A stretch of DNA of 64,000 bases from an uncultured Verrucomicrobiae bacterium (GTDB taxonomy: Bacteria; Verrucomicrobiota; Verrucomicrobiia; Chthoniobacterales; Terrimicrobiaceae), in NCBI GenBank assembly GCA_963706955.1, contig CAVPOC010000002.1, positions 64,001 through 128,000 on the forward strand, given 5' to 3'. Made by a program: the position numbers and the translations under genes. This document shows positions 53,126-63,895 of this stretch, one piece after another; the first letter of the stretch is position 1, and the number at the start of each line of letters is the position of its first letter. Under the pieces are notes generated by a model. The model did no database searches and was not told the DNA's origin. It saw only the letters and a program-made list of their open reading frames with translations.

Positions 53126-54235
53126 ATGGCTGAAATCACAGCACTGCGCAAGTATCCCTGCCCCGAGTGCGGCGGGGACGCCGAATGGAGCGCTTCCAAA
53201 CAGGCCCTCGTCTGTCCCTATTGCGGCACAATCGTGCCATGGACGCCGGGAAAAGATACCCTCGGAGAAACGATCCGGGAAACCGAGCTCGCTGCGGCTT
53301 TGAGTTCGGCAGGATCCGAGACTCGGGATTGGCACTTCGACAAACGCGAAGTCAAGTGCCAGAACTGCCAGGCCATCACGGTTTTCGAAGCGTCGCGCGC
53401 CGCGCAGCGATGCGAATTCTGCGGCTCGCCATCCATTGTTCCGTTGGAGACAACGCGCGATGCAATCACACCGACAGCGGTGCTCCCGGCCAGACTTTCC
53501 GAGCCGCAGGTCCGTGATCGACTCCGCCAGTGGTATTCCTCGCGAATGTTCGCGCCAGACCGGTTCAAAAAAGCCGCGCTGACTGACACCCTGCACGGAC
53601 TCTATTTGCCTTACTGGACCTTTGACGCTCATGTGCACGCGGCTTGGACGGCGATGGCCGGCTATGTCTATTTCGAGAACGTGCAGCGCCGCGGGTCCGA
53701 TGGCCGGCTCGTGAACGTTGCCGAGCAGCGCGTCCGCTGGCAACCGGCTAGAGGTGAGGTGGAGCATTTCTTCGACGATGATCCTGTTCCCGGCACGATG
53801 GGGGTCGAACTCGCCCTTCTGCGCAAAGTGGAACCTTTCCCTACCCGTGGCGACGAACTGAAGCCCTACGAACCTACCTACCTGCGAGGATGGACTGTAG
53901 AACGTTACCAGGTCGACCTGCGGAAAGCGGCCGAACTAAATCTTGCGCAAATGGACACGGCAATGAGGGAACTCTGCGCCAAACAGGTGCCCGGCGATAC
54001 TCAGCGGGACTTGCAGGTGAAAACCCAGTATCAAGGCCGCACGTTCAAGCATGTTCTCGTGCCGGTGTGGCTCGTTACTTATACTTATGGGCCGAAGAAC
54101 TACCAAATCGTCGTCAATGGCTACACAGGGATCGTCGCCGGCGATCGTCCGATCAGCTACATAAAGGTCTTCGTCTACGTCATTTTGCCCGCGCTGATCA
54201 TCATTTTGCTGCTGCTCCTGACGCAGCAGTCGTGA
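53126..54235 (+). CDS. Multi-zinc-ribbon membrane-anchored protein (SPFH partner)
   Basis: CPECG, CPYCG, CQNC, CEFCG, YLPYWTFD and VNGYTG motifs, with a C-terminal TM helix. Confidence 0.85.
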   Translation: MAEITALRKYPCPECGGDAEWSASKQALVCPYCGTIVPWTPGKDTLGETIRETELAAALSSAGSETRDWHFDKREVKCQNCQAITVFEASRAAQRCEFCGSPSIVPLETTRDAITPTAVLPARLSEPQVRDRLRQWYSSRMFAPDRFKKAALTDTLHGLYLPYWTFDAHVHAAWTAMAGYVYFENVQRRGSDGRLVNVAEQRVRWQPARGEVEHFFDDDPVPGTMGVELALLRKVEPFPTRGDELKPYEPTYLRGWTVERYQVDLRKAAELNLAQMDTAMRELCAKQVPGDTQRDLQVKTQYQGRTFKHVLVPVWLVTYTYGPKNYQIVVNGYTGIVAGDRPISYIKVFVYVILPALIIILLLLLTQQS

Positions 54236-54443
54236 TCCGAACGTCTCGAGTGCGCGCCAGCCACGCCGCTCGACGCAGCCGGTGCACGGAGGCGGGCGCA
54301 TTTCAAAGATCTCCGCGTGCCCAAACCGCGCAACGAAAGCTGGTCTGCGGTCGGAGGCGAGTGATGAAGCACCGTTTTTCCGTGCTTTCGGGAAGATACG
54401 TTGGCAATGTCGGAGTTGATGCCGGACGTATCGCCGTGTCTTT

Positions 54444-55587
54444 GTGAGCTGGAAAGGTAACGAGTCGAGATTCTCACTGAGTCGGCTTCCGCTTTTCTGG
54501 AAGCTTCACATTGCTGGATGTCTCCTGCTTTTCTTTGGGCTGTTTCCGCTGCGGCTTTTCCTCATCCCGTACGAAACAGAGCTGCTGGGCTCACTCCAAC
54601 GCCATGCCTATTACCTTATCTGGTGCGATATCACCTGCTTCCTCCTGGCGATCGGCCTGCGCTATCTTTACCGGCTCGAGTATTTTTATCGCATAAGTCG
54701 CGTCTCCCTCGGAATACACATTGTCTTCATTTCTGCCGCGCTCGCGCTCATTGACATCGGACTGACCTTTCCTGTCTTTAGCCTGGTTGAGCGGCTGCAG
54801 ACATCACGCCAGCCCGCATCTCTACATTGCATCATCCATCTGGCCGCGCTTCTGGTTCTTCACAACGTGGAGCCTGCTCTATTTTCTCCTCAGGGCCTTT
54901 CAAGATGCCCGTCGCGCTGACGCGGCGCTGAGAGGCGCTGAGAACCGTCGTCGAGAGGCCGAGCTCCTCATGCTCCGCTCGCAAATTAACCCGCATTTTC
55001 TTTTTAACGCTCTCAACACGGTCCTCAGCGAGTCCGACGGCAACCAACGGCTGACGCTGGTGGTCAGAGGACTTTCCGATTACATGCGCTATGCCTTGGC
55101 AAATCGTCAAAACCTCTTCGTGCCTCTTGGCCAGGAGGCGGAAGCACTCGCCCGGTATGCGGACGTAGAGCAAGCGAGATTCGGCGGCACTCTTTGGATC
55201 CAAATCGCCATCGACCCGAATACTCGAGAGTTGCCCGTGCCCGGAGTCTTCATGCAGCCGCTGGTTGAAAACGCCATCAAACATGGCCGCGAATCGTGTG
55301 AAGAAACTCTCCGGATCCTCGTGCAGGCCGGGTTGGAGAATCGCACCCTTCACATTAAGGTCTCGAATACCGGGGCGTGGGTTCCGCCACCGACTGCTCC
55401 TCTCGACCGGCCCTCGGGCGCCGGGCTATCCATCTTGCGACGTCAACTCGAGCTCCTTTATCCAGGACGATCCGAGTTCCGGATCGGGTCGGAGAATGGA
55501 GGCGTCGTGGCCGAGATTCTGATCGATGATCCCGTCAACGCTGCGAACGAAGCGCAAACGAGCCTCAGGGACGCACGTCAAAGATGA
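54444..55587 (+). CDS. LytS/YehU-type sensor histidine kinase, frameshift near 54830
   Basis: TM-rich ORF 54444..54920 joins ORF 54787..55587 carrying LRSQINPHFLFNALN, QPLVENAIKHG and GAGL. Confidence 0.85.
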
Positions 55588-56315
55588 CTTGGCGGACCCT
55601 GATTATCGATGACGAGCCTCCCGCTCGAAAACACCTTAGGCGACTGCTGGCCGAGCATCCCCAAATTGAGGTCGTCGGCGAAGCGTCCGGAGTCGCCGAA
55701 GCCATCGAAATGTGTGAAAAGTATCAGCCAGGACTTTTGTTCCTCGATGTGCAAATGCCTCGAGCGACGGGTTTCGATCTTCTGCCTAAGCTAACGCCGG
55801 TGCCAAAGATTGTCTTTGTCACCGCGCATGAGGAATTCGCGCTCCGCGCCTTCGAGGTGAATGCGGTTGATTATCTCATGAAGCCGGTGTTCGCGGACAG
55901 ACTGGCCCTTGCTCTTAAGCGCATTCTCTCAGGCTCGGGGTTGGATCCCGCTGCCGATGACCCCTTGGAAGCCGGCGATGCCGTTTTCTTGCAGAGCGGT
56001 CGAACTCTACGCATGGTGCCACTTCGCCAGATCGTTTGCATCGTAGCCGAGGGAAATTACTCCACCGTGGTCCTCAGCGACGGTAAGGAGTTTCTCATTT
56101 ATCGAACCTTGAACCAGTGGGAAAAGCGCCTACCCAGCAGTCTGTTCGTGCGGCTTGACCGCTCGATTCTCGTTAATTTGACTCATCTTTTGGAGGTCAA
56201 GATCATCGACCGGGACGCGGGTCATTTGCATCTCACCGGCCGCAAGGAACCTCTAATGCTCGGCCGGACGGCCATCAATCGCGTGCGGCTCTCTCTGCAA
56301 GAACGGCAAAGCTGA
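55584..56315 (+). CDS. LytTR-family response regulator
   Basis: IIDDE, FLDVQMP, FVTAH, DYLMKP receiver motifs; AEGNYS and FVRLDRSILVN LytTR domain. Confidence 0.94.
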   Translation: MTWRTLIIDDEPPARKHLRRLLAEHPQIEVVGEASGVAEAIEMCEKYQPGLLFLDVQMPRATGFDLLPKLTPVPKIVFVTAHEEFALRAFEVNAVDYLMKPVFADRLALALKRILSGSGLDPAADDPLEAGDAVFLQSGRTLRMVPLRQIVCIVAEGNYSTVVLSDGKEFLIYRTLNQWEKRLPSSLFVRLDRSILVNLTHLLEVKIIDRDAGHLHLTGRKEPLMLGRTAINRVRLSLQERQS

Positions 56316-56551
56316 TCTGGCGGTTGGCGCTTCGCGGCCCCTGCCAACTTCGGAGAGAACTTCGCCGGATTGGGATAAGAAAACTTCCCGCAGCTGCAAG
56401 CTCTGGCACTTAGCTGCGAATCTCATAGCGAGACAAAGCTATGAACAGACGCAGAAAGACCTTCTCAACTTTTCGCAGAGCTTCCGACCGTGGTCGGAAT
56501 TTCCCTGGGCATCGCGCTCCTCAACCCACGTTTTCTCAGACGCTGCGAGAC

Positions 56552-57352
56552 ATGTCTTTCGGAGACATTCTGCCGGGCTCAATCGAAAAACGGATTGCTG
56601 GCAACTGGATTACACCGGAGGAAGCCGCTGTGGCCATCCGAGACGGCGACGGATCGGGGATACGCATCGCCATTCTGGATTCCGGCGTCGAGATTGGGCA
56701 CCCCGATTTTCGTGGCCGGCAACTCGACGACGACCTTGTCATGGATGACGTAAATCTCGGCGAGTTCGCCGAGGGCGAAGGAGAGGACACCTATGGACAT
56801 GGCACGGCGATCGCCGGGATCATCTGGAAAGTCGCTCCAGAAGCGGGCATCACCAGCTTCCGCGTGCTCGGACCAAAGCTCGCCGGACGCACGGCCCAGG
56901 TTTGGCTCGCCGCAAATGAGGCCATCACCAGAGGTTTCGACATCATCAATTGCAGTTTCGCATGCGGCATCTCCGGTCACTTATCTCTCTACAAGGAGTG
57001 GACGGACCGGGCTCTCGTCAAAGGCGTTCACGTAGTGGCCGCCTCGCACGGCGAGGAGCCGGAATGGCCTGCACATTTCGCGAGCGTGCTGGCCGTCGAC
57101 TATGCCGAGTCAGAAATGGACGAAGGCCAGATCTCGTATTCGGAAGGTCGGATGGTGGGATTTACGGCCGCTGCCGATGGCGAGGTTCCTTGGAAGGATG
57201 GCACCCATCGTTCGATGACGGGAAGCAGTTTCGCCGCCGCTCTGATGACGGGAATCGTGGCACGGCTGCTCTCGGTTTACCCGATTCGAGACCCTCTCCT
57301 GCTCAAGGCCCTCCTCCGGAGGGTCTACGGCGGCGAGGAGAATTGGAATTGA
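56552..57352 (+). CDS. S8 (subtilase) family serine peptidase, no signal peptide
   Basis: IAILDSG (Asp), GHGTAIAG (His) and TGSSFAA (Ser). Likely start is ATG 56552. Confidence 0.85.
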   Translation: MSFGDILPGSIEKRIAGNWITPEEAAVAIRDGDGSGIRIAILDSGVEIGHPDFRGRQLDDDLVMDDVNLGEFAEGEGEDTYGHGTAIAGIIWKVAPEAGITSFRVLGPKLAGRTAQVWLAANEAITRGFDIINCSFACGISGHLSLYKEWTDRALVKGVHVVAASHGEEPEWPAHFASVLAVDYAESEMDEGQISYSEGRMVGFTAAADGEVPWKDGTHRSMTGSSFAAALMTGIVARLLSVYPIRDPLLLKALLRRVYGGEENWN

Positions 57353-57628
57353 ATGGTCGACTCGGTGGAAGCGAGCCCGAGCTGAATTGCAGCATCCTTT
57401 CCAATAACGGCAGTTATTGCAAAATAGGCACGACTGTACGGGATCGCTCCGTGTTGGGGAAAAATGCATCTCGATAATTTAAAGGTTGTCGTACGTGCGA
57501 ATGATCTACTACAAAACTAGACCCAAAAGAGCTCACTATGATCAATGCTGATACAATACGCACGACTGATTCTGAAAATGGCAAGTCCCCTGCGACGGAT
57601 TCGGTTGTTGAGGAAATCAAGGGGGAGC

Positions 57629-57994
57629 TTGAAACCAGTAGACCAGTCTAGTTTCCCGGCCAATGAACCTGAGCAGGGTTCTGAAGCGAATGAGCCAGAT
57701 CGCGAAAGTTCCTTTACGAGGCGTGCCCTGCTGCTCAAGGTGGGCTGGGCTGTCCCGGTAATTCTCGCTGTCGGGCTGCCTTCAACGGTGTTAGCCGGTA
57801 TGACGTCTCCGTCGCGTGGCCATGACCACAAACCTAAGTGTGACTTCTGGCCCAAGAAAAACCACGGGTCCGACAAAAACCACGGGTCCGACAAGAACTA
57901 CTGGCCAGGCAAAGACCACTGGTTCGACAAGAAGCACTGGCCCGACGATAACAAGAAAAAGGACTCACATCATTACGACCGATTGTGGTGGTAA
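57629..57994 (+). CDS. Putative RiPP-like precursor: twin-arginine/lasso-like leader + His/Trp-rich hexapeptide repeats
   Basis: TTG start follows AAGGGGGAG (alternatives ATG 57545/57578). Contains FTRRALLLKVGWAVPVILAVGLPSTVLA|G and a repeat-rich C-terminus, and lies directly upstream of a PqqD gene. Confidence 0.7.
   Translation: MKPVDQSSFPANEPEQGSEANEPDRESSFTRRALLLKVGWAVPVILAVGLPSTVLAGMTSPSRGHDHKPKCDFWPKKNHGSDKNHGSDKNYWPGKDHWFDKKHWPDDNKKKDSHHYDRLWW
57857..57946 (+). repeat. Five 18-bp coding tandem repeats (KNHGSD KNHGSD KNYWPG KDHWFD KKHWPD)
   Basis: AAAAACCACGGGTCCGAC x2, followed by three diverged in-frame units. Confidence 0.85.
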
Positions 57995-58138
57995 TTAAGG
58001 ATGCTGCGGACGTTCATCATGCCGGAGTCGACTTTGGAGCGTGCTTCGGCTGCTTAGACAGTGTCCTTGAAGACGGTCACTGGATACTCAGTGGATTCCA
58101 GAATCGCCCAAAAGCCCTTGATACATCCTCTGGATACG

Positions 58139-58435
58139 ATGCTTGCCCGACCTAACCGGCTGGGGAGCGTCAACTGCTATGATTTAGACGACGAGGTGTT
58201 ACTCTACTCCAGCGGGAGTGAGAGGGTGTTCTCGCTCAATAGTTCCGCCAAAGCCATCTGGGAACTATGTGATGGCAGTCACACCATCGTCGAAATTGGT
58301 CAGGAACTCGGCGAGCGCGTCGGCTGCTCTGGCGATGAGCTGTTTGATGACATCATAAACGCTGTAGGTGAATTCCGTGAGCACGGTCTTCTGGAGTTGG
58401 CGGAAGCGTCTCGTGCGGAAATCCCTGGAAAATAG
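58139..58435 (+). CDS. PqqD family / RiPP recognition element (RRE)
   Basis: LDDEVLLY..VFSLNSSAKAIWELCDGSHTIVEI..L....DI...V..FREHGLL is a classic PqqD pattern. Confidence 0.92.
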   Translation: MLARPNRLGSVNCYDLDDEVLLYSSGSERVFSLNSSAKAIWELCDGSHTIVEIGQELGERVGCSGDELFDDIINAVGEFREHGLLELAEASRAEIPGK

Positions 58436-58451
58436 CGAAGAAACGGTCGCT

Positions 58452-59390
58452 ATGAACGGGCAGACATTACACGTTGGGTTCGGCGGCAGCAAGGTAGCTG
58501 TCTACTCTGATGCCCCCGAGGTGCTTGCGGGATTGAAACGTATCTTTGGTGAGATGCTCGAGTCCGAGCCCACGAGGACGGTGGAGCGTTTGGAGGTGAA
58601 GCGGAGAGACGGCAATTACAATGTCTTGGGGATTACGGAAGCTTGCATCGAGTATGGTTCGCTGGCCGATACAGTGGAACGCCTGCGGTTTGAAGTGGTC
58701 TTGCGCCTGATCCAGGCACGCTCCGACCTCATGTGGCTCCACGCGGGGGCTGCGGCCTACCGGTCTGGTTCTGTCATGATTCTGGGCCCTTGGGGGCGGG
58801 GCAAGAGTACCCTCGTCACAAGCCTCTACGCAAACGGCTGGACCTACCTGTCCGACGACGTCGTCCCCCTGGACCCGAATTCTGGTAGAGCATTTCCCTT
58901 TCCTTTGACTCCAATGGTTCGCGAGGACCCAGGACAGGAATTGCCTTTCGAGCGTCTTTCAGAACTGCGAAAGACGGTGGTGCCCCTCCTACCGGAAAGA
59001 ATATGCCGAGATCCCGTCCCAATTAGGACGGTGGTATTTCCAGTTTACCGCCGTGGGTGTCACACCGAACTTCTGCCCTGCTCCCCCGCGACTGCCGCGC
59101 TGGAGCTACTTCAAAATTGTCTAAATTTCCCGAGTCACCGGGAGGCCGCGGTGCGATACGTTTGCGATCTGGTAAGGAAAGTGCCCGCTTTCCGCCTCTC
59201 TTACAGCGACGGCAGACTCGCCGCCGAGCTCATAGCTGAAGCGCATGAAAGCTGGGAGCAGGTAAAAAGCTTCCCACAGCATCCTGACGCAGCCGACGCG
59301 GTCCTCCTCACTTTCCGATCGGGCGCCGATCATCCCCAAGCAACAAAGGCTCGGAGGACACCTTCGGCGTTCATTTCGATGAGGGTCTAA
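58452..59390 (+). CDS. HPr-kinase-like P-loop kinase (RiPP-associated type)
   Basis: WLHAGAA, GPWGRGKSTL and YLSDDVV motifs. Confidence 0.85.
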   Translation: MNGQTLHVGFGGSKVAVYSDAPEVLAGLKRIFGEMLESEPTRTVERLEVKRRDGNYNVLGITEACIEYGSLADTVERLRFEVVLRLIQARSDLMWLHAGAAAYRSGSVMILGPWGRGKSTLVTSLYANGWTYLSDDVVPLDPNSGRAFPFPLTPMVREDPGQELPFERLSELRKTVVPLLPERICRDPVPIRTVVFPVYRRGCHTELLPCSPATAALELLQNCLNFPSHREAAVRYVCDLVRKVPAFRLSYSDGRLAAELIAEAHESWEQVKSFPQHPDAADAVLLTFRSGADHPQATKARRTPSAFISMRV

Positions 59391-59537
59391 GCGCTCGCTA
59401 GTCGGCCTTGCCCGGAGGTAGCTACCGGAAGAAATCCGGAGCGCTTCGAACTGGCAACGCTCTACATGGTGCAGACGCTTGCAAAAAGTTAATTAAACAA
59501 GCGTCGGCTTTTATTACGCGTTCTCAGTTAGGAGCAT

Positions 59538-60641
59538 ATGTTCAAGACCTCCAGTAACGGCGGCGCGGGGCAATTTTGCGCTGAGATCGAGCTGCTCCTG
59601 TGCTGCGCTAGAACGTGCGTGGATTCGAAAGCGGCCGCGCGCGTCGAAGTCCTGCTGAGACAAGGCGTCGACGTGGCCTACCTAATGCGGGTAGCGCGAC
59701 GCCATGGGCTGTTGCCTTTGGTTTACTGGAACCTGCATAAAGACTGCCGAGTTCCCAAAGCTGTTCTCGATCAGTTACGGGGTTATTTCAGGACTAATGC
59801 TGTCCGCAACATAATCCTAGCTGAAGAGCTGATCGAAATTTTGAAGTTACTCAAGACACAAAATATTCTCGCGGTTCCATTCAAAGGCCCGCTTTTGGCC
59901 GCCCTGGCTTATCGAAACCTTGCCCTCAGGGAATTCTTCGATCTGGATCTTTGGGTTCACCAACGTGATTTCGCGGCGGCCCAGACCGTGCTCGAGTCGC
60001 GTGGATACCGACTGGAGGTCCAAGCTCCGTGGGAATCTTGCTTTGTCCGCAACGATGGCAAAATGGCGATGGAGGTGGATCTTCACAGCGGCATTACGCC
60101 GCCGGATTTTCCTCTCGCGCTCGACTTTGACCAATTGTGCGAGCGACTTCGTCACGTCAAACTTTCGACACGGATAGTCCCTACTTTTTCGCCGGAGGAC
60201 CTCCTCATAATCCTGTGCATTCAAGTGGCTAAGGATGCATGGGAGTGTCGTAATCGGCTACTGCAGCTCTGTGATATTAGAGCAGTGATCGACAGTCAAC
60301 AAACAATCGATTGGCGAAAACTGATGAGACAGGCTCGAACCATGGGCTGCCAGCGCATGGTCCTTCTCGGCTTCCGCTTGGTTAATGAGCTTCTGGAAGC
60401 ATCCGTGCCTATGGAAATCCTCCAGGAAGCCGCGGCACATCGGGGGGTCGAAACCCTTTGTCAGCGAGTGCGTGCGGTGCTTTTTGGAGCCGCGACTGCT
60501 GGCTTTCCCAGCAGTTTTGTTTTGCGACATCACGCAATCGATCGTGCGCGTGATCGGGTCCGTCACGCTTTGTGGTACTTTTACTTCAGGAAGGACCGCG
60601 CACTTATGGCGTCGCCACGATCTCTTTCTGGCCATGGATAA
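59538..60641 (+). CDS. Nucleotidyltransferase family protein (NTP_transf_5-like), C-terminus probably truncated
   Basis: [18 protein letters not shown]...[17 protein letters not shown] and LCDI motifs, with AGGAG RBS. Confidence 0.88.
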
Positions 60642-60740
60642 GGTAGCTGTGCAGATGTTCGCCGCTCCAATCGAACGCACTCCGAAGAACATCGTGAGTT
60701 TGGCGATACTGGTGTCGCTTGCCACGAGGAAACGTCGCCG
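60622..60740 (-). pseudogene. pRiA4b ORF-3-like protein fragment
   Basis: [15 protein letters not shown] (frameshift) [23 protein letters not shown] matches the family RR..V....LH..IQ.AF.W...HLH pattern. Confidence 0.65.
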
Positions 60741-60807
60741 AGGGGAACGCAAATACGTCGAACACCTTGGACTTGCTGCTGCCGTTTGGTCCAAGCAAGA
60801 CTGTCAT
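60741..60807 (-). pseudogene. AAA/ABC-type ATPase N-terminal fragment
   Basis: [21 protein letters not shown] is a degenerate GPNGSGKST Walker A. Confidence 0.55.
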
Positions 60808-60913
60808 TGGGCGCGTAGGCGCTACGCGCCCAGCGCTCTGGGCGTGTCCTCACGGAGCTTTCCGGCGCTGGGGACACCTAGGTGCGCCTGGCGGGGACTG
60901 CGGCCGCCGCGCG

Positions 60914-63895
60914 TCAGGCGGATCGTCCGCAGCAATTCTTAAACTTCTTCCCGCTGCCGCACGGACATGGTTCATTGCGGCCGACCTTGGGAACCTCCCG
61001 CCTGATAGGAAGTTCAATCTTCGGGACGGGCGGCTCCTCACTGTTCTCCACGAGCGGAGCAGCAGCCGGCTCCGGACGGGAGGAGAGCCCGGGAATGTCT
61101 GCCTGGATGAGATTCTGCGGCAGACTGCGAAGGAGAGTTTCGAAGGCTTGCAAGTTGGTGGTGCTCCGAAACAAGTTGTTGAGAACTTCGAGTTTGATGT
61201 TGTCCATCAACTCGCCAAACATGGAGAAAGCCTCATTCTTGTATTCGACGAGGGGATCTTTTTGTGCGAAGGCGCGCAGGTAAACAGCTTCGCGGAGCCC
61301 GTCCATGGCATAAAGATGCTCCTGCCAAAGCCGGTCAACAGCATTCAGGATGACGAAGCGCTCCAAGCCGCGGAGTGCTTCGGCATGTTCCATCGCCGCC
61401 TTCCGATTGTAAGCATCCTTGATCACCTGAAGGAGCCAATTGCTGTTCTCTTCGACGGTCCGCGATTGCAGATCCGCTTTCTTCGCCGTGAGACCAAGCG
61501 GAAAGGTCGTGTTTACCCAATTCAACAATCCCTCCCGATCAGGCTCTTCGCTGTCGGTTTGGCCAAGATATTCGCCGACCTTCTTTGGCACCATCTCGTC
61601 GATGACCTCAAAGACGAGCTCTCGCGGATTCTCTGAATCCATCACCTCCTGGCGATAGCCATAGATCACCTCGCGCTGTTGGTTCATGACATCGTCAAAC
61701 TCGAGCGTTCGCCGACGAATCATGTAGTTGCGCTGCTCGACCCGTTTTTGCGCGGTTTCGACGCTCTTGTTCAACCAAGGATGCTCGAGTTCTTCGCCCT
61801 CTTTCAGCCCAAAGGTCTCCATGATCTTGGTCATGCGGTCGCTCGCCCCAAAATTCCGCATGAGGTCGTCCTCAAAACTTACGTAAAAGCGTGACAGACC
61901 TGGATCGCCCTGCCGGGCACAACGGCCGCGCAGCTGGCGGTCGATGCGCCGGGCTTCGTGTCGCTCGGTGGCCAGGACGTAAAGGCCACCTAAGTCGGAG
62001 ACCCCTTGACCGAGTTTGATATCAGTGCCGCGCCCCGCCATGTTTGTCGAGATGGTCACCGAGCCTTTGAAGCCGGCGCGGGCGACAATCTCGGCCTCCT
62101 GCATGTGGAATTTCGCGTTCAGGACCGTGTGGGGGATTTTCTGCAGCTTGAGCATCCGGCTGAGCAACTCGCTCGCTTCGACACTGGCGGTGCCGACCAG
62201 CACCGGCTGACCTTTGCCGTGAGCATCTCTGATCGCCTCGATGACCGCCGTGTACTTTTCCCGTCTGGTCTTGTAGATGCGATCGTTCTCGTCGAGGCGA
62301 CGGACGGGTCGATTGGTAGGGATGACATTGACATCGAGGCGATAGATGTCGTGAAACTCATTGGCCTCGGTCTCGGCGGTGCCGGTCATACCCGCGAGCT
62401 TCTCGTAGAGACGAAAGTAGTTTTGGATGGTGATCGTCGCGAGAGTCTGAGTCTCGCGATCAATCTGGACACCCTCCTTCGCTTCGACCGCCTGATGCAG
62501 ACCATCACTCCACCGGCGGCCAGGCATTTTGCGGCCGGTGAAAGTATCGACAATGATCACCTTGTTTTCTTCGACGACATATTCGACATCCTTCTCGTAG
62601 AGGCAGTAGGCCTTGAGAAGCTGCGAGATGTTATGGATGCGCTCCGCTTGTGCGTCGCAGTATTGTTGCCGTGCTGCCTTTCGTTGCGCCTTTTCACCGT
62701 CATTGAGATCCGGCTTGTTATCGATGTCCGCGAACTCGGTGAGCAAATCCGGAAGCACAAAGGCATCGGGATCGTCAGGATTGAGAAAGTCGCGTCCTTT
62801 TTGGGTCAGGTCGGCATCGTGCTGGCGCTCCTCGATGGTGAAAAACAACTCTTCTTTGAGCTCCACAAGGGCCGCCTTCCCGTCGGTGTCTTTATAAAAC
62901 TCGAGTTCAGCCTTATCGACCAATTTGCGGAGCTCGGGATCTTCCATCATCCGCGAGAGACCTTTGTTCCGTGGTTGTCCAAGCTTCAGCTTAAACAAGA
63001 TGCGCCCGGCTTCGTCTCTCTTCCCACCATCATGGAGCTCCTTCGACTCGGTCGAGAGCCGATTGCAAAGCATGGTTTGCTTGCGGACGAGCTGTTCGAC
63101 AAGCGGTTTGAAGCGGTCGTATTGATGCGTCGAGATGGTCGCGGGGCCGCTGATGATCAGCGGCGTGCGTGCTTCATCGACCAAGATCGAATCCACTTCG
63201 TCGACAATGGCGTAGAAGTGCGATCGCTGCACCTGTTGGTCGCGGCTGGTGGCCATTCCGTTGTCTCGCAGGTAGTCGAAACCGAACTCGCTATTGGTCC
63301 CGTAAGTGATGTCGCACTGGTATTGCGCCCGGCGCAAATCTGGCGGCTGATCGTGCTGGATGATTCCAATGGTCAGTCCGAGAAATGCGTAGAGTTGGCC
63401 CATCCATTCCGCATCGCGGCGGGCGAGGTAGTCGTTGACGGTGACCACGTGAACGCCGCGTCCGCTGAGAGCGTTCAAATAGACCGGTGCAGTAGCCACC
63501 AACGTCTTTCCCTCGCCGGTCGCCATCTCAGCGATGCGGCCGCGATGCAGGACCACTCCGCCGATGAGTTGAACGTCGAAATGGACCATTTCCCAGGTCG
63601 TCGGCTGATCGCACACCGTAAAGGTGTGCTTTCGATCGGAAAGACGTCGAGCGCCCTGCTTAACTACCGCGAATGCTTCAGGCAAAATTTCCTGCAAGCG
63701 CGCCTCGAGAGCGTTTGAGTCGGTGATCGCCGAAAGCTCCTCTTTCCAAGCGGCGGTCTTGCCTCGCAGATCGTCGTCTGAAAGCTCACCCAGTCTCTGC
63801 TCGAACTCATTAATCTGATCGATAAGAGGCTGTATACGGCGCAGCTCGCGTTGATTTTTCGAGCCGACGATGGTCTTGAGAATCCAATTGAACAT
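60914..63895 (-). CDS. secA: Preprotein translocase subunit SecA
   Basis: [60 protein letters not shown] and [17 protein letters not shown] motifs. Confidence 0.98.

Follow-up and report, generated by a model that had tools for sequence, protein, structure and literature searches.

A four-gene cassette between an S8 protease gene and secA

The locus lies in a 64,000-nt stretch of DNA (the window) from a soil bacterium of the Gram-negative Verrucomicrobiota, the genome of which is 92.5% complete. An ORF listing of the window confirmed the five co-oriented ORFs that a preliminary description had placed at 56552-60641. The cassette comprises only four of these, encoding a precursor peptide, a stand-alone RRE, an HprK-type kinase and a PF14907 nucleotidyltransferase (NTase; Table 1). 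The S8 protease gene is not part of it.

Table 1. Coordinates of the genes and features of the locus, numbered from the first nucleotide of the window.
Feature	Position	Strand	Remarks
Short subtilase (PF00082)	56552..57352	+	Resident neighbour outside the cassette; frame open from ATG 56441
Inserted block	57353..60911	.	Sister genomes do not have it at this site
Precursor peptide gene, 151 aa	57538..57994	+	ATG 57538; assembly frame shifted by one extra G
Leader core	57719..57796	+	T-R-R-A-L-L (RR 57719), W-x-x-P-x-I (W 57746), 19-residue uncharged stretch, predicted cleavage after V-L-A
Ser at +4 of predicted core	57806..57808	+	Predicted phospho-acceptor; Ser+4 in 40/40 close relatives
18-nt tandem repeat	57857..57946	+	Five copies, 75% matches; encodes Lys/His/Trp/Asp-rich units
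Stand-alone RRE (PqqD family)	58139..58435	+	98 aa from ATG 58139; 124 aa from GTG 58061
HprK-related kinase, 312 aa	58452..59390	+	PEPCK/HprK fold
PF14907 nucleotidyltransferase, 367 aa	59538..60641	+	PF14907, E 3e-63

The cassette is horizontally mobile and arrived as a single block between the resident S8 gene and secA. Comparison with sister genomes placed the likely true ends of the block at ~57370 and ~60843, and the empty-site joint (57352-60914) was present in one contig. The flanks of the insert contained no terminal repeats longer than 8 nt and no transposase. A search of the locus for promoters and terminators yielded nothing above the shuffled expectation, and there were no Rfam matches in 54000-62000. 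One of the six sister genomes with a cassette-free S8-secA site, G017, carries the cassette on another contig than its S8 gene, at 93% nucleotide identity and beside an ABC transporter. In comparison with G017, dS values were 0.19, 0.09 and 0.10 for the RRE, kinase and NTase, respectively, versus 0.87 for the resident response regulator and 0.84 for S8, a gap of approximately ninefold. The enzymes are under purifying selection (dN/dS of 0.37-0.53); for the N-region and leader of the peptide, the ratio was ~1, calculated from very few changes. The cassette moves between species as a unit and may therefore be self-sufficient.

The locus had been suspected of being cut on its right, with loss of genes. 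Instead, the locus is contained in a single 8,166-nt contig from an independent run, and the G017 copy aligns to 60742, beyond the NTase stop codon. Moreover, nine of the 12 members of the NTase cluster are also 367 aa long.

Among 18 further genomes of the genus (59-97% complete), a close match to the kinase was found in one and S8 in 14. With a single-sequence query, the kinase was detected in two of 400 further genomes from the phylum; a profile query retrieved it from 13 of 400 genomes of the order, of which only G017 was close. The latter count takes in one genome marked as unpublished, which was left out of later analyses. The neighbourhood survey covered Verrucomicrobiota genomes, seven plasmid regions and four metagenome contigs. 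One distant metagenome contig carries the peptide, RRE, kinase and NTase genes together, and its 5.5 kb showed neither an S8 nor a cyclase. Of the four peptide matches in metagenomes, two were rejected as cassette loci: L042 had no enzymes within 5.4 kb, and L043 was a chance match. RNA-library contigs of four studies span the peptide gene wholly or partly; they show no start, strand or level and may derive from DNA. None of those listed joins S8 to the peptide gene, an absence that carries no evidential weight.

The precursor peptide and its leader

The extra G in the precursor gene, located in the run at 57621-57625, is absent from the contigs of all five covering runs (X1, X5, X15, X17 and X18, from five studies). 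Once it is discounted, the precursor has 151 residues. The length of ~120 aa given in the preliminary description and a 149-aa ORF from ATG 57545 are both products of the extra G and were rejected. The precursor matched no family in Pfam or NCBIfam and, judging by its sequence, belongs to an unnamed peptide family. It was found in none of 60 relatives' genomes, the G017 copy ending at a contig edge with only its last codons left, and all of its Atlas matches were below 0.9 and count as leads at most. As indirect evidence of linkage, 17 of 99 precursor matches were on contigs identical in size to that of an RRE, NTase or kinase match (chance mean of 1.4, maximum of 6). Tat-like peptides or proteins adjoin related kinases in L041, L047, L048, L050 and L088. 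Among the seven closest kinase loci, a peptide was not found at two (L049 and L051).

We examined 82 distinct leader windows using published definitions of the twin-arginine (PMC13673990) and adaptor (RRE) (PMC13381572) motifs. The W, P and V of the adaptor motif were invariant, an RR pair was present in 74 windows and KR in the other eight, and 72 windows fit Z-R-R-x-phi-phi. No charged residue occurred over the 14 positions from W in 67 windows. In the precursor described here, the twin-arginine motif is followed by a hydrophobic, h-region-like stretch of 19 residues with a mean hydropathy of 1.89. Tat signals are further defined by a positively charged n-region (PMC13673990). By contrast, in all 32 close members the N-region, ~60 residues long, carries a net negative charge, RR occurring at about residue 61 in this clade. 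This long acidic N-region argues against a textbook Tat signal. Among 50 distant members, RR was within 35 residues in 39 and the net charge was at least zero in 39.

The cleavage site after V-L-A is a motif-based guess, the rule having placed a site in 70 of the 82 windows. The predicted core is a peptide of 65 residues with Lys/His/Asp/Trp repeats. In addition to the Ser at +4, Thr is found at +3 in 38 of 40 close relatives. Of 50 distant members, 45 have a Ser or Thr after the leader, as compared with a background of 41%.

The genome encodes TatC, and the leader suggests that the peptide is likely exported by the housekeeping Tat system and signal peptidase I in place of dedicated parts. 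Alternatively, the same cassette could function without Tat export, the RR pair and hydrophobic stretch serving for enzyme recognition or as an uncleaved membrane anchor, so that the peptide, once modified, would remain inside the cell or in the membrane. Consistent with this alternative, the 60-residue N-region is net negative, KR replaces RR in eight windows, the leader is conserved far beyond what export alone would need, and W-x-x-P-x-I-x-x-x-G has the spacing of lasso leaders (compare L082 and L085). We nevertheless regard this alternative as unlikely. Most windows agree with the Tat consensus; downstream of W there is an uncharged stretch, which the two lasso leaders found do not share, followed by an Ala-ended site; the cassette has no exporter or peptidase of its own; and Tat can accept cargo that is small, unfolded and hydrophilic (PMC13673990).

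The RRE, kinase and nucleotidyltransferase

According to a Pfam search, the RRE belongs to PF05402 (E 5e-12); the only other PqqD protein of the genome is encoded in a pqq operon. The RRE profile weakly matched PDB entry 9x8z (E 0.053), which is LppB (PMC13381572). A structure model of the RRE with the leader scored 0.44, as compared with 0.04 for the best of three controls. The runs agreed in at least 86% of contacts, and the partner pLDDT was at least 60. In a benchmark, the mark applied to this model was reached by 116 of 157 solved pairs and two of 215 mismatched pairs; 18 of these solved pairs and both mismatches scored 0.60 or lower. Because RRE-leader complexes have already been solved, the pass possibly reflects mere likeness. 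The model thus weakly suggests that the RRE binds the leader.

The kinase matched nothing above cut-off in Pfam. Its best match was TIGR04352 (HprK-related kinase A; 75.7 bits, cut-off of 200), which was the best family match for all 103 aligned kinases. The catalytic motifs are intact: conserved residues include His97, Gly115, Gly117, Lys118 and Ser119 of Walker A, Asp135 and Arg157, and the last ~38 residues showed no constraint. A PqqD domain above cut-off was present in 10 of the 21 longer kinase matches scanned. In relatives, the kinase is additionally joined to an O-fucosyltransferase-like domain and a 2OG-Fe(II) oxygenase.

In the NTase, K116-G117, R131, D135, D137 and H183 were invariant among 14 aligned sequences. 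Its nearest folds are those of LnuA, ANT(2'')-Ia and MenT1. That the nearest solved structures are antibiotic O-nucleotidyltransferases and MenT1 raises the prospect that the substrate of the kinase and NTase is a small molecule or a different protein, the peptide being only a carrier or bystander, and a separate peptide was not found at some loci with HprK, NTase and PqqD (L049, L051 and L057). However, a stand-alone RRE and a peptide with an RRE motif travel with the enzymes, relatives of the kinase are fused to PqqD, and homologous enzyme pairs modify peptides in three published systems. A substrate other than the peptide is therefore very improbable.

The neighbouring S8 protease

The S8 protease (PF00082, E 4e-19 in a Pfam search) has intact D-H-S catalytic motifs at residues 43, 83 and 226. 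Its best NCBIfam match, below cut-off, was QhpE (98.5 bits, cut-off of 165), a leader-removing protease. The gene is co-oriented with the peptide gene, 185 nt upstream of it, the adjacency of cassette and S8 recurs in several samples (X1, X5, X6, X8, L040, P0025 and P0066), and the cassette contains no other peptidase gene. These features agree with the earlier proposal that the cluster has five genes and that S8 is dedicated to processing the leader. Nevertheless, that proposal has become hardly tenable. In G016, G017, G010, G001, G004 and G008, S8 faces secA directly without the cassette, and a LytS/LytTR pair and secA flank it in all six of these sister loci. In G017, cassette and S8 are on different contigs, and the dS gap separates S8 from the cassette genes. 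Furthermore, no S8 was seen at L041, L047, L048 or L050, and an S8 paralogue is part of a GAF-S8-sigma module. A seventh close S8 copy (L031) occurs in yet another context. Overall, S8 very probably has no dedicated role in the system.

Relationship to known peptide systems

The enzyme set of the cassette is already published. To call the system undescribed, as was done initially, was too strong, since linear polyphosphorylated peptides (LPP, 2026) and the HPr-rel-A cassettes of NCBIfam had been named. A Tat-leader version of such a cassette was not found in a literature search that had most subscription journals outside its scope.

The closest known system is LPP, encoded by lppAKBSDN of Paenibacillus alginolyticus (Popov et al. 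2026, PMC13381572). Like the cassette, LPP clusters have a discrete RRE together with an HprK-like kinase and an NTP transferase, and no cyclase. Further likenesses are the conserved [YW]xxP leader with a variable core (LPP precursors are 35-200 aa long), the Ser just past the cleavage site, and a patchy, transfer-driven distribution. LppK phosphorylates core Ser3, and LppN yielded no product (PMC13381572). LPP are described as restricted to Bacillota, with Tat never mentioned (PMC13381572); by contrast, the present host is a Gram-negative verrucomicrobium. The cassette also differs in that LppS, a SipW-like, archaeal-type signal peptidase, is missing, there being no TIGR02228 match in the genome, and the inserted block has no counterpart of the MsbA-like ABC exporter of the LPP cluster. 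The precursor does not conform to the LPP consensus YxxPxVLxHQxIxFETxxS, with which it has only [YW]xxPx[VI]L and a downstream Ser in common. W takes the place of Y, a twin-arginine pair and uncharged stretch that of H-Q-x-I-x-F-E-T, and the Ser is at +4 rather than +3.

In HPr-rel-A cassettes (TIGR04352 kinase, TIGR04353 PqqD chaperone and nucleotidyltransferase), PqqD, kinase and NTase genes are adjacent, as they are here. A Sphingomonas example even has the same order of Tat-like protein, PqqD, kinase and NTase, but its partner is a 161-aa protein without W-x-x-P, whereas the present peptide is a low-complexity repeat peptide with the motif. Because the kinase (75.7 of 200 bits) and the RRE (28.4 bits against TIGR04353, cut-off of 35) score below the cut-offs, we consider the cassette a sister subfamily of HPr-rel-A.

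The phosphorylated lasso peptide clusters (Bsf, paeninodin and pseudomycoidin) likewise combine an RRE, an HprK kinase and an NTase, and the His, Lys, Ser and Asp-Asp motif of their kinases is kept in the cassette kinase. BsfK phosphorylates core Ser3, and does so faster with its RRE (PMC10368454), and PsmN is required for the hexose on the phospho-Ser of pseudomycoidin (PMC6993621). The present leader contains the lasso motif [YW]xxPx[LVIAFY] and is accompanied by a discrete RRE. By contrast, the cassette lacks a cyclase, B2, an ABC transporter, a ring acid, Thr at -2 and a C-terminal Ser, and its kinase belongs to a different clade. Where lasso precursors have Thr, Ile or Val at -2 and Asp or Glu at core positions 7-9, this precursor has Leu at -2 and its first Asp at +10. 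It ends in Trp in place of the C-terminal Ser of paeninodin-type precursors. Such a Ser, which the preliminary description had held to be needed by these kinases, is not required because BsfK and LppK phosphorylate core Ser3 (PMC10368454, PMC13381572).

The ORFs and domain searches at the locus bore out the reported absence of a PF00733 synthetase and B2 (PF13471). Genome-wide, there was no PF13471 match above cut-off, and PF00733 occurred on three other contigs in AsnB-like contexts. Close homologous loci were inspected for a cyclase and B2 and did not have them. A lasso cluster in decay, from which cyclase, B2 and transporter have been lost, is a very improbable reading and is already largely refuted. 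In its favour, RRE, HprK kinase and PF14907 NTase all belong to the tailoring parts of lasso clusters (PMC8498205), the leader is spaced like a lasso leader and has Gly as core +1, Bsf tolerates Ile at -2 (PMC10368454), and full lasso clusters account for two of the 12 Verrucomicrobiota loci that have both kinase and NTase. On the other side, the remaining 10 of these loci are in genomes without a PF13471 match, the 82 windows include one with Thr at -2 and six with a C-terminal Ser, Asp or Glu occurs at core 7-9 in 12 of 70, cores span 10 to 118 residues, selection maintains the enzymes, the right end recurs in copies from other samples, and the lasso-linked kinases form a separate clade (support of 98/96) that excludes the cassette kinase.

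Proposed mechanism

The initial idea of an RRE-guided, cyclase-less kinase and NTase that modify a linear peptide bearing a Tat-like leader stands as the best reading, without the role assigned to S8. We consider it reasonably probable that the four-gene cassette makes a linear, serine-phosphorylated and further decorated peptide that is probably Tat-exported. In the first step, the RRE would, with good confidence, grip W-x-x-P-x-I in the leader. The kinase would then probably phosphorylate Ser+4 or Thr+3, perhaps more than once, while the core is still joined to the leader; BsfK and LppK likewise phosphorylate Ser3. The NTase may well act next on the phospho-Ser, adding NMP, a phospho-sugar or a sugar in a PsmN-like manner, a step that we favour only slightly. 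Finally, and with evenly balanced confidence, the leader, freed from the RRE, could act as a Tat signal, signal peptidase I cutting after V-L-A to leave a 65-residue peptide outside the cytoplasm.

More tentatively, the cassette could represent a class of linear RiPPs, mobile and widespread, whose RRE-bound leader is at the same time a Tat signal peptide. The precursor would be kept in the cytoplasm by the RRE until its Ser is phosphorylated and nucleotidylated or phospho-glycosylated, and the RRE would then hand it over to housekeeping Tat and signal peptidase I. Such a hand-over would make a dedicated protease and exporter unneeded and leave the core free to vary.

The cassette bears on the final product of LPP and on the reaction of PF14907 enzymes (PsmN, LppN and BsfN) and, as a minimal four-gene version, may offer a clean system for finding what the NTase adds. 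Should the leader also act as a Tat signal, RRE-guided tailoring would be linked to general protein export, the targets of uncharacterised HPr-rel-A cassettes would be hinted at, and peptides phosphorylated at a specific site could be secreted by means of a portable tag.

With its His, Lys, Asp and Trp repeats, the core might bind metal or the cell surface. The number of repeat units among relatives ranges from zero to eight, and the core ends in R-L-W-W in 26 of 40 close relatives.

Composition and reading frame of the locus

All five ORFs proposed in the preliminary description were present, and S8, PqqD and NTP_transf_5 domains were detected in them. The HPr-kinase-like enzyme was likewise borne out: its top family score, under the cut-off, was to HprK-related kinase A, its profile matched HPr kinases by sequence in a search of the PDB, and fold comparison of its predicted structure (pLDDT 95.8) yielded the PEPCK/HprK fold. 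The precursor, described as ∼120 aa, had been misread owing to one base. Because the contigs of all five runs covering a stretch of five G in the window have one base fewer, the gene encodes 151 residues; its homologues begin M-I-N-A/S-D, matching the ATG listed in the table. The extra base is likely an assembly error, a strain lesion being the less probable explanation.

The locus had also been thought cut on the right. A single contig from an independent run spans the region, and 9 of 12 members of the nucleotidyltransferase (NTase) cluster share a length of 367 aa and an identical tail type; the right end is natural. Because the tail is shorter than that of a distant homologue on contig L041 (414 aa; 37% identity over 311 columns) and was modelled with low confidence, the protein may long ago have lost a C-terminal helix. 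The catalytic residues were invariant in 14 aligned sequences. The nearest folds were LnuA, ANT(2'')-Ia and MenT1, with FKRP lower in the list, and the predicted fold is that of a nucleotidyltransferase, not a classical glycosyltransferase.

Coordinates of the features discussed (G000, host genome; C, host contigs; L, fetched loci)
Feature	Sequence	Position
Subtilase module one	window	54444-57352
Span of independent contig	window	55500-62500
S8 subtilase	window	56552-57352
Inserted cassette	window	57353-60911
Precursor start (ATG)	window	57538
Run of five G	window	57621-57625
pqq operon (L006)	G000 C10	251354-254539
Subtilase module two	G000 C15	70637-72903
Insert between S8 and peptide gene	L040	801-1318
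Lone family peptide	L042	4665-4907
Thr-rich repeat peptide	L047	8770-9200
Candidate lasso precursor	L082	6215-6427
Candidate lasso precursor	L085	11375-11554

Insertion beside a resident subtilase

In six sister genomes (G016, G017, G010, G001, G004 and G008), close S8 orthologues come after a LytS/LytTR pair and point towards secA, within about 150-230 nt of it. Alignments of the window to G016 and G017 end at 57353 and 57369 and restart at 60912. In G017, the RRE, kinase and NTase genes, with the peptide's last codons, lie on another contig at 93% identity. Because dS relative to G017 is far lower for the cassette genes (0.09-0.19) than for the resident regulator and S8 (0.84-0.87), the divergence suggests that the block was transferred recently and that S8 was not carried with it. 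The S8 gene, previously assigned to the cluster, is a neighbour of the cassette. As a counter-point, the block does follow an S8 in several soil samples and in contig L040. The L040 S8 is closer to that of G016 (94%) than to that of the window (90%), so the insertion site is common to two related lineages, with and without the insert. In L040, a further 517-nt piece, resembling part of a Ser/Thr protein kinase gene, intervenes between S8 and the peptide gene; the site therefore accepts insertions repeatedly. Overall, the cassette is a mobile unit of four genes that are under purifying selection and retain intact motifs.

We judged the host to be a soil member of Verrucomicrobiota. The reported lack of a lasso cyclase and B2 leader peptidase at the locus was upheld: B2 had no match above the cut-off in the host genome, and the asparagine synthetases are located away from the cassette. 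The second PqqD sits within a pqq operon and recognises a related leader type; given the related types, cross-talk between the two RREs could occur.

Leader and core of the precursor family

A pair of searches returned 99 matches; after removal of 6 without the motif (fragments or frameshifts), the remaining 93 reduced to 82 distinct leader windows. RR (74/82) or KR (8/82) stands about eight residues ahead of an invariant W-x-x-P-V, followed by I/V-L, an uncharged stretch and an Ala-ended site. The Tat hallmarks are mixed: the motif Z-R-R-x-phi-phi, as defined in PMC13673990, fits 72/82 windows, but the N-region of the close clade is acidic and 60 residues long. Cores vary from 10 to 118 residues and have only an early Ser or Thr in common. 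Ser occurs at +4 in 40/40 close members. In 45/50 distant members a Ser or Thr falls between W+18 and W+22 (Ser alone, 36/50), versus 41% downstream; these counts describe the family and are no tests, as kin are not independent. The family lacks the hallmarks of lasso precursors: Thr occupies -2 in 1/82, an acid at 7-9 in 12/70 and a C-terminal Ser in 6/82.

The RRE-leader model scored 0.44, the best of three controls 0.04. The score mark was reached by 116/157 solved complexes and 2/215 mismatches; where the score was no higher than 0.60, just 18 solved complexes and both mismatches reached it. At least 86% of contacts agreed between runs, with a partner pLDDT of at least 60. The model tentatively suggests that the RRE binds the leader; existing solved RRE-leader complexes may explain the pass.

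A lone family peptide on L042 has a charged, helical-looking core. No tailoring genes were seen in the 5.4 kb around it, and it may be modified in trans.

Related loci

Seven loci carry the kinases nearest to this one in the profile search (E below 1e-24). Neither a cyclase nor a B2 was observed at them by family search (G017, G184), record annotation (three plasmids) or ORF reading (L041, L050). A Tat-like peptide or protein, or its end, adjoins the enzymes in five of the seven (G017, L041, L047, L048 and L050); L088, with a more distant kinase, is a sixth example. On L047, a Mesorhizobium plasmid, the peptide is an unannotated Thr-rich repeat on the strand opposite an annotated hypothetical gene, flanked on one side by an RRE-kinase fusion and on the other by an NTase and a TPR glycosyltransferase-like gene.

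An HprK-like match was present in 15 Verrucomicrobiota genomes, 12 of which encode an NTase no more than 5 kb away. Of these 12, two hold full lasso clusters (L082 and L085; G490 and G619) and ten lack a B2 match genome-wide. Several of these ten are of a different type, in which glycosyltransferases are present and a separate peptide was not found. In a cyclase-less type unlike the cassette (L052, L057 and L010), a PqqD with a conserved C-terminal L-L-L-D-P-x-H-E-V adjoins glycosyltransferases, an NTase and an HPr-type kinase; no separate peptide was found at these three loci, and the PqqD tail may act as its own leader.

In a 37-row kinase tree, the four kinases linked to lasso clusters or to AsnB grouped with one further kinase in a clade (98/96) that excluded the kinase of the window; the wider group around the latter was less well supported (87/85 and less). 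Longer relatives of the kinase carry a fused PqqD, an O-fucosyltransferase-like domain (weak match) or a 2OG-Fe(II) oxygenase; a cyclase or B2 fusion never occurred among the 21 scanned. Fusions of the latter two kinds (the former below the Pfam cut-off), alone or together, are P0201, P0209, P0215, P0229, P0244, P0252 and P0266. Such architectures suggest that phosphorylation, hydroxylation and glycosylation of peptides are combined.

Relation to known systems and proposed mechanism

In known systems, RREs recognise leaders of the [YW]xxP type. In the linear polyphosphorylated peptides (LPPs; PMC13381572), as many as four phosphorylations of core Ser3 are catalysed by LppK, and the leader is cut off by a signal-peptidase-like enzyme; BsfK phosphorylates Ser3, its RRE speeding the reaction (PMC10368454); and hexose on phospho-Ser requires PsmN (PMC6993621; reviewed in PMC8498205). 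By analogy, we infer that the cassette works like an LPP. The RRE would guide the kinase to phosphorylate Ser+4 of the core, the NTase would then add a second modification, and export by Tat with cleavage by signal peptidase I would replace LppD and LppS. TatC is present in the host genome and the TIGR02228 peptidase is absent from it. The His/Asp/Lys/Trp repeat of the mature peptide might, speculatively, bind metal or surfaces.

Unlike the LPPs (lppAKBSDN), the cassette lacks LppS and an exporter and has a different leader, which places it outside that class; nor is it a lasso peptide cluster. It is a sister of the HPr-rel-A cassette (TIGR04352/TIGR04353), scoring below the cut-off. No description of the Tat-leader form was found in the literature searched. 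The locus contributes direct evidence that such a cassette is mobile, excludes S8 from it and defines a family of 82 leaders whose acceptor is conserved.

Subtilase modules in the genus

Two conserved modules of the genus contain short, signal-less QhpE-like subtilases. In one, the subtilase lies behind the LytS/LytTR pair; in the other, the S8 paralogue on C15 is flanked by a GAF-only protein and an ECF-like sigma factor, and LytTR-only proteins are encoded close by. The GAF-S8-sigma arrangement is present in many relatives. The two modules may represent a regulatory proteolysis module.
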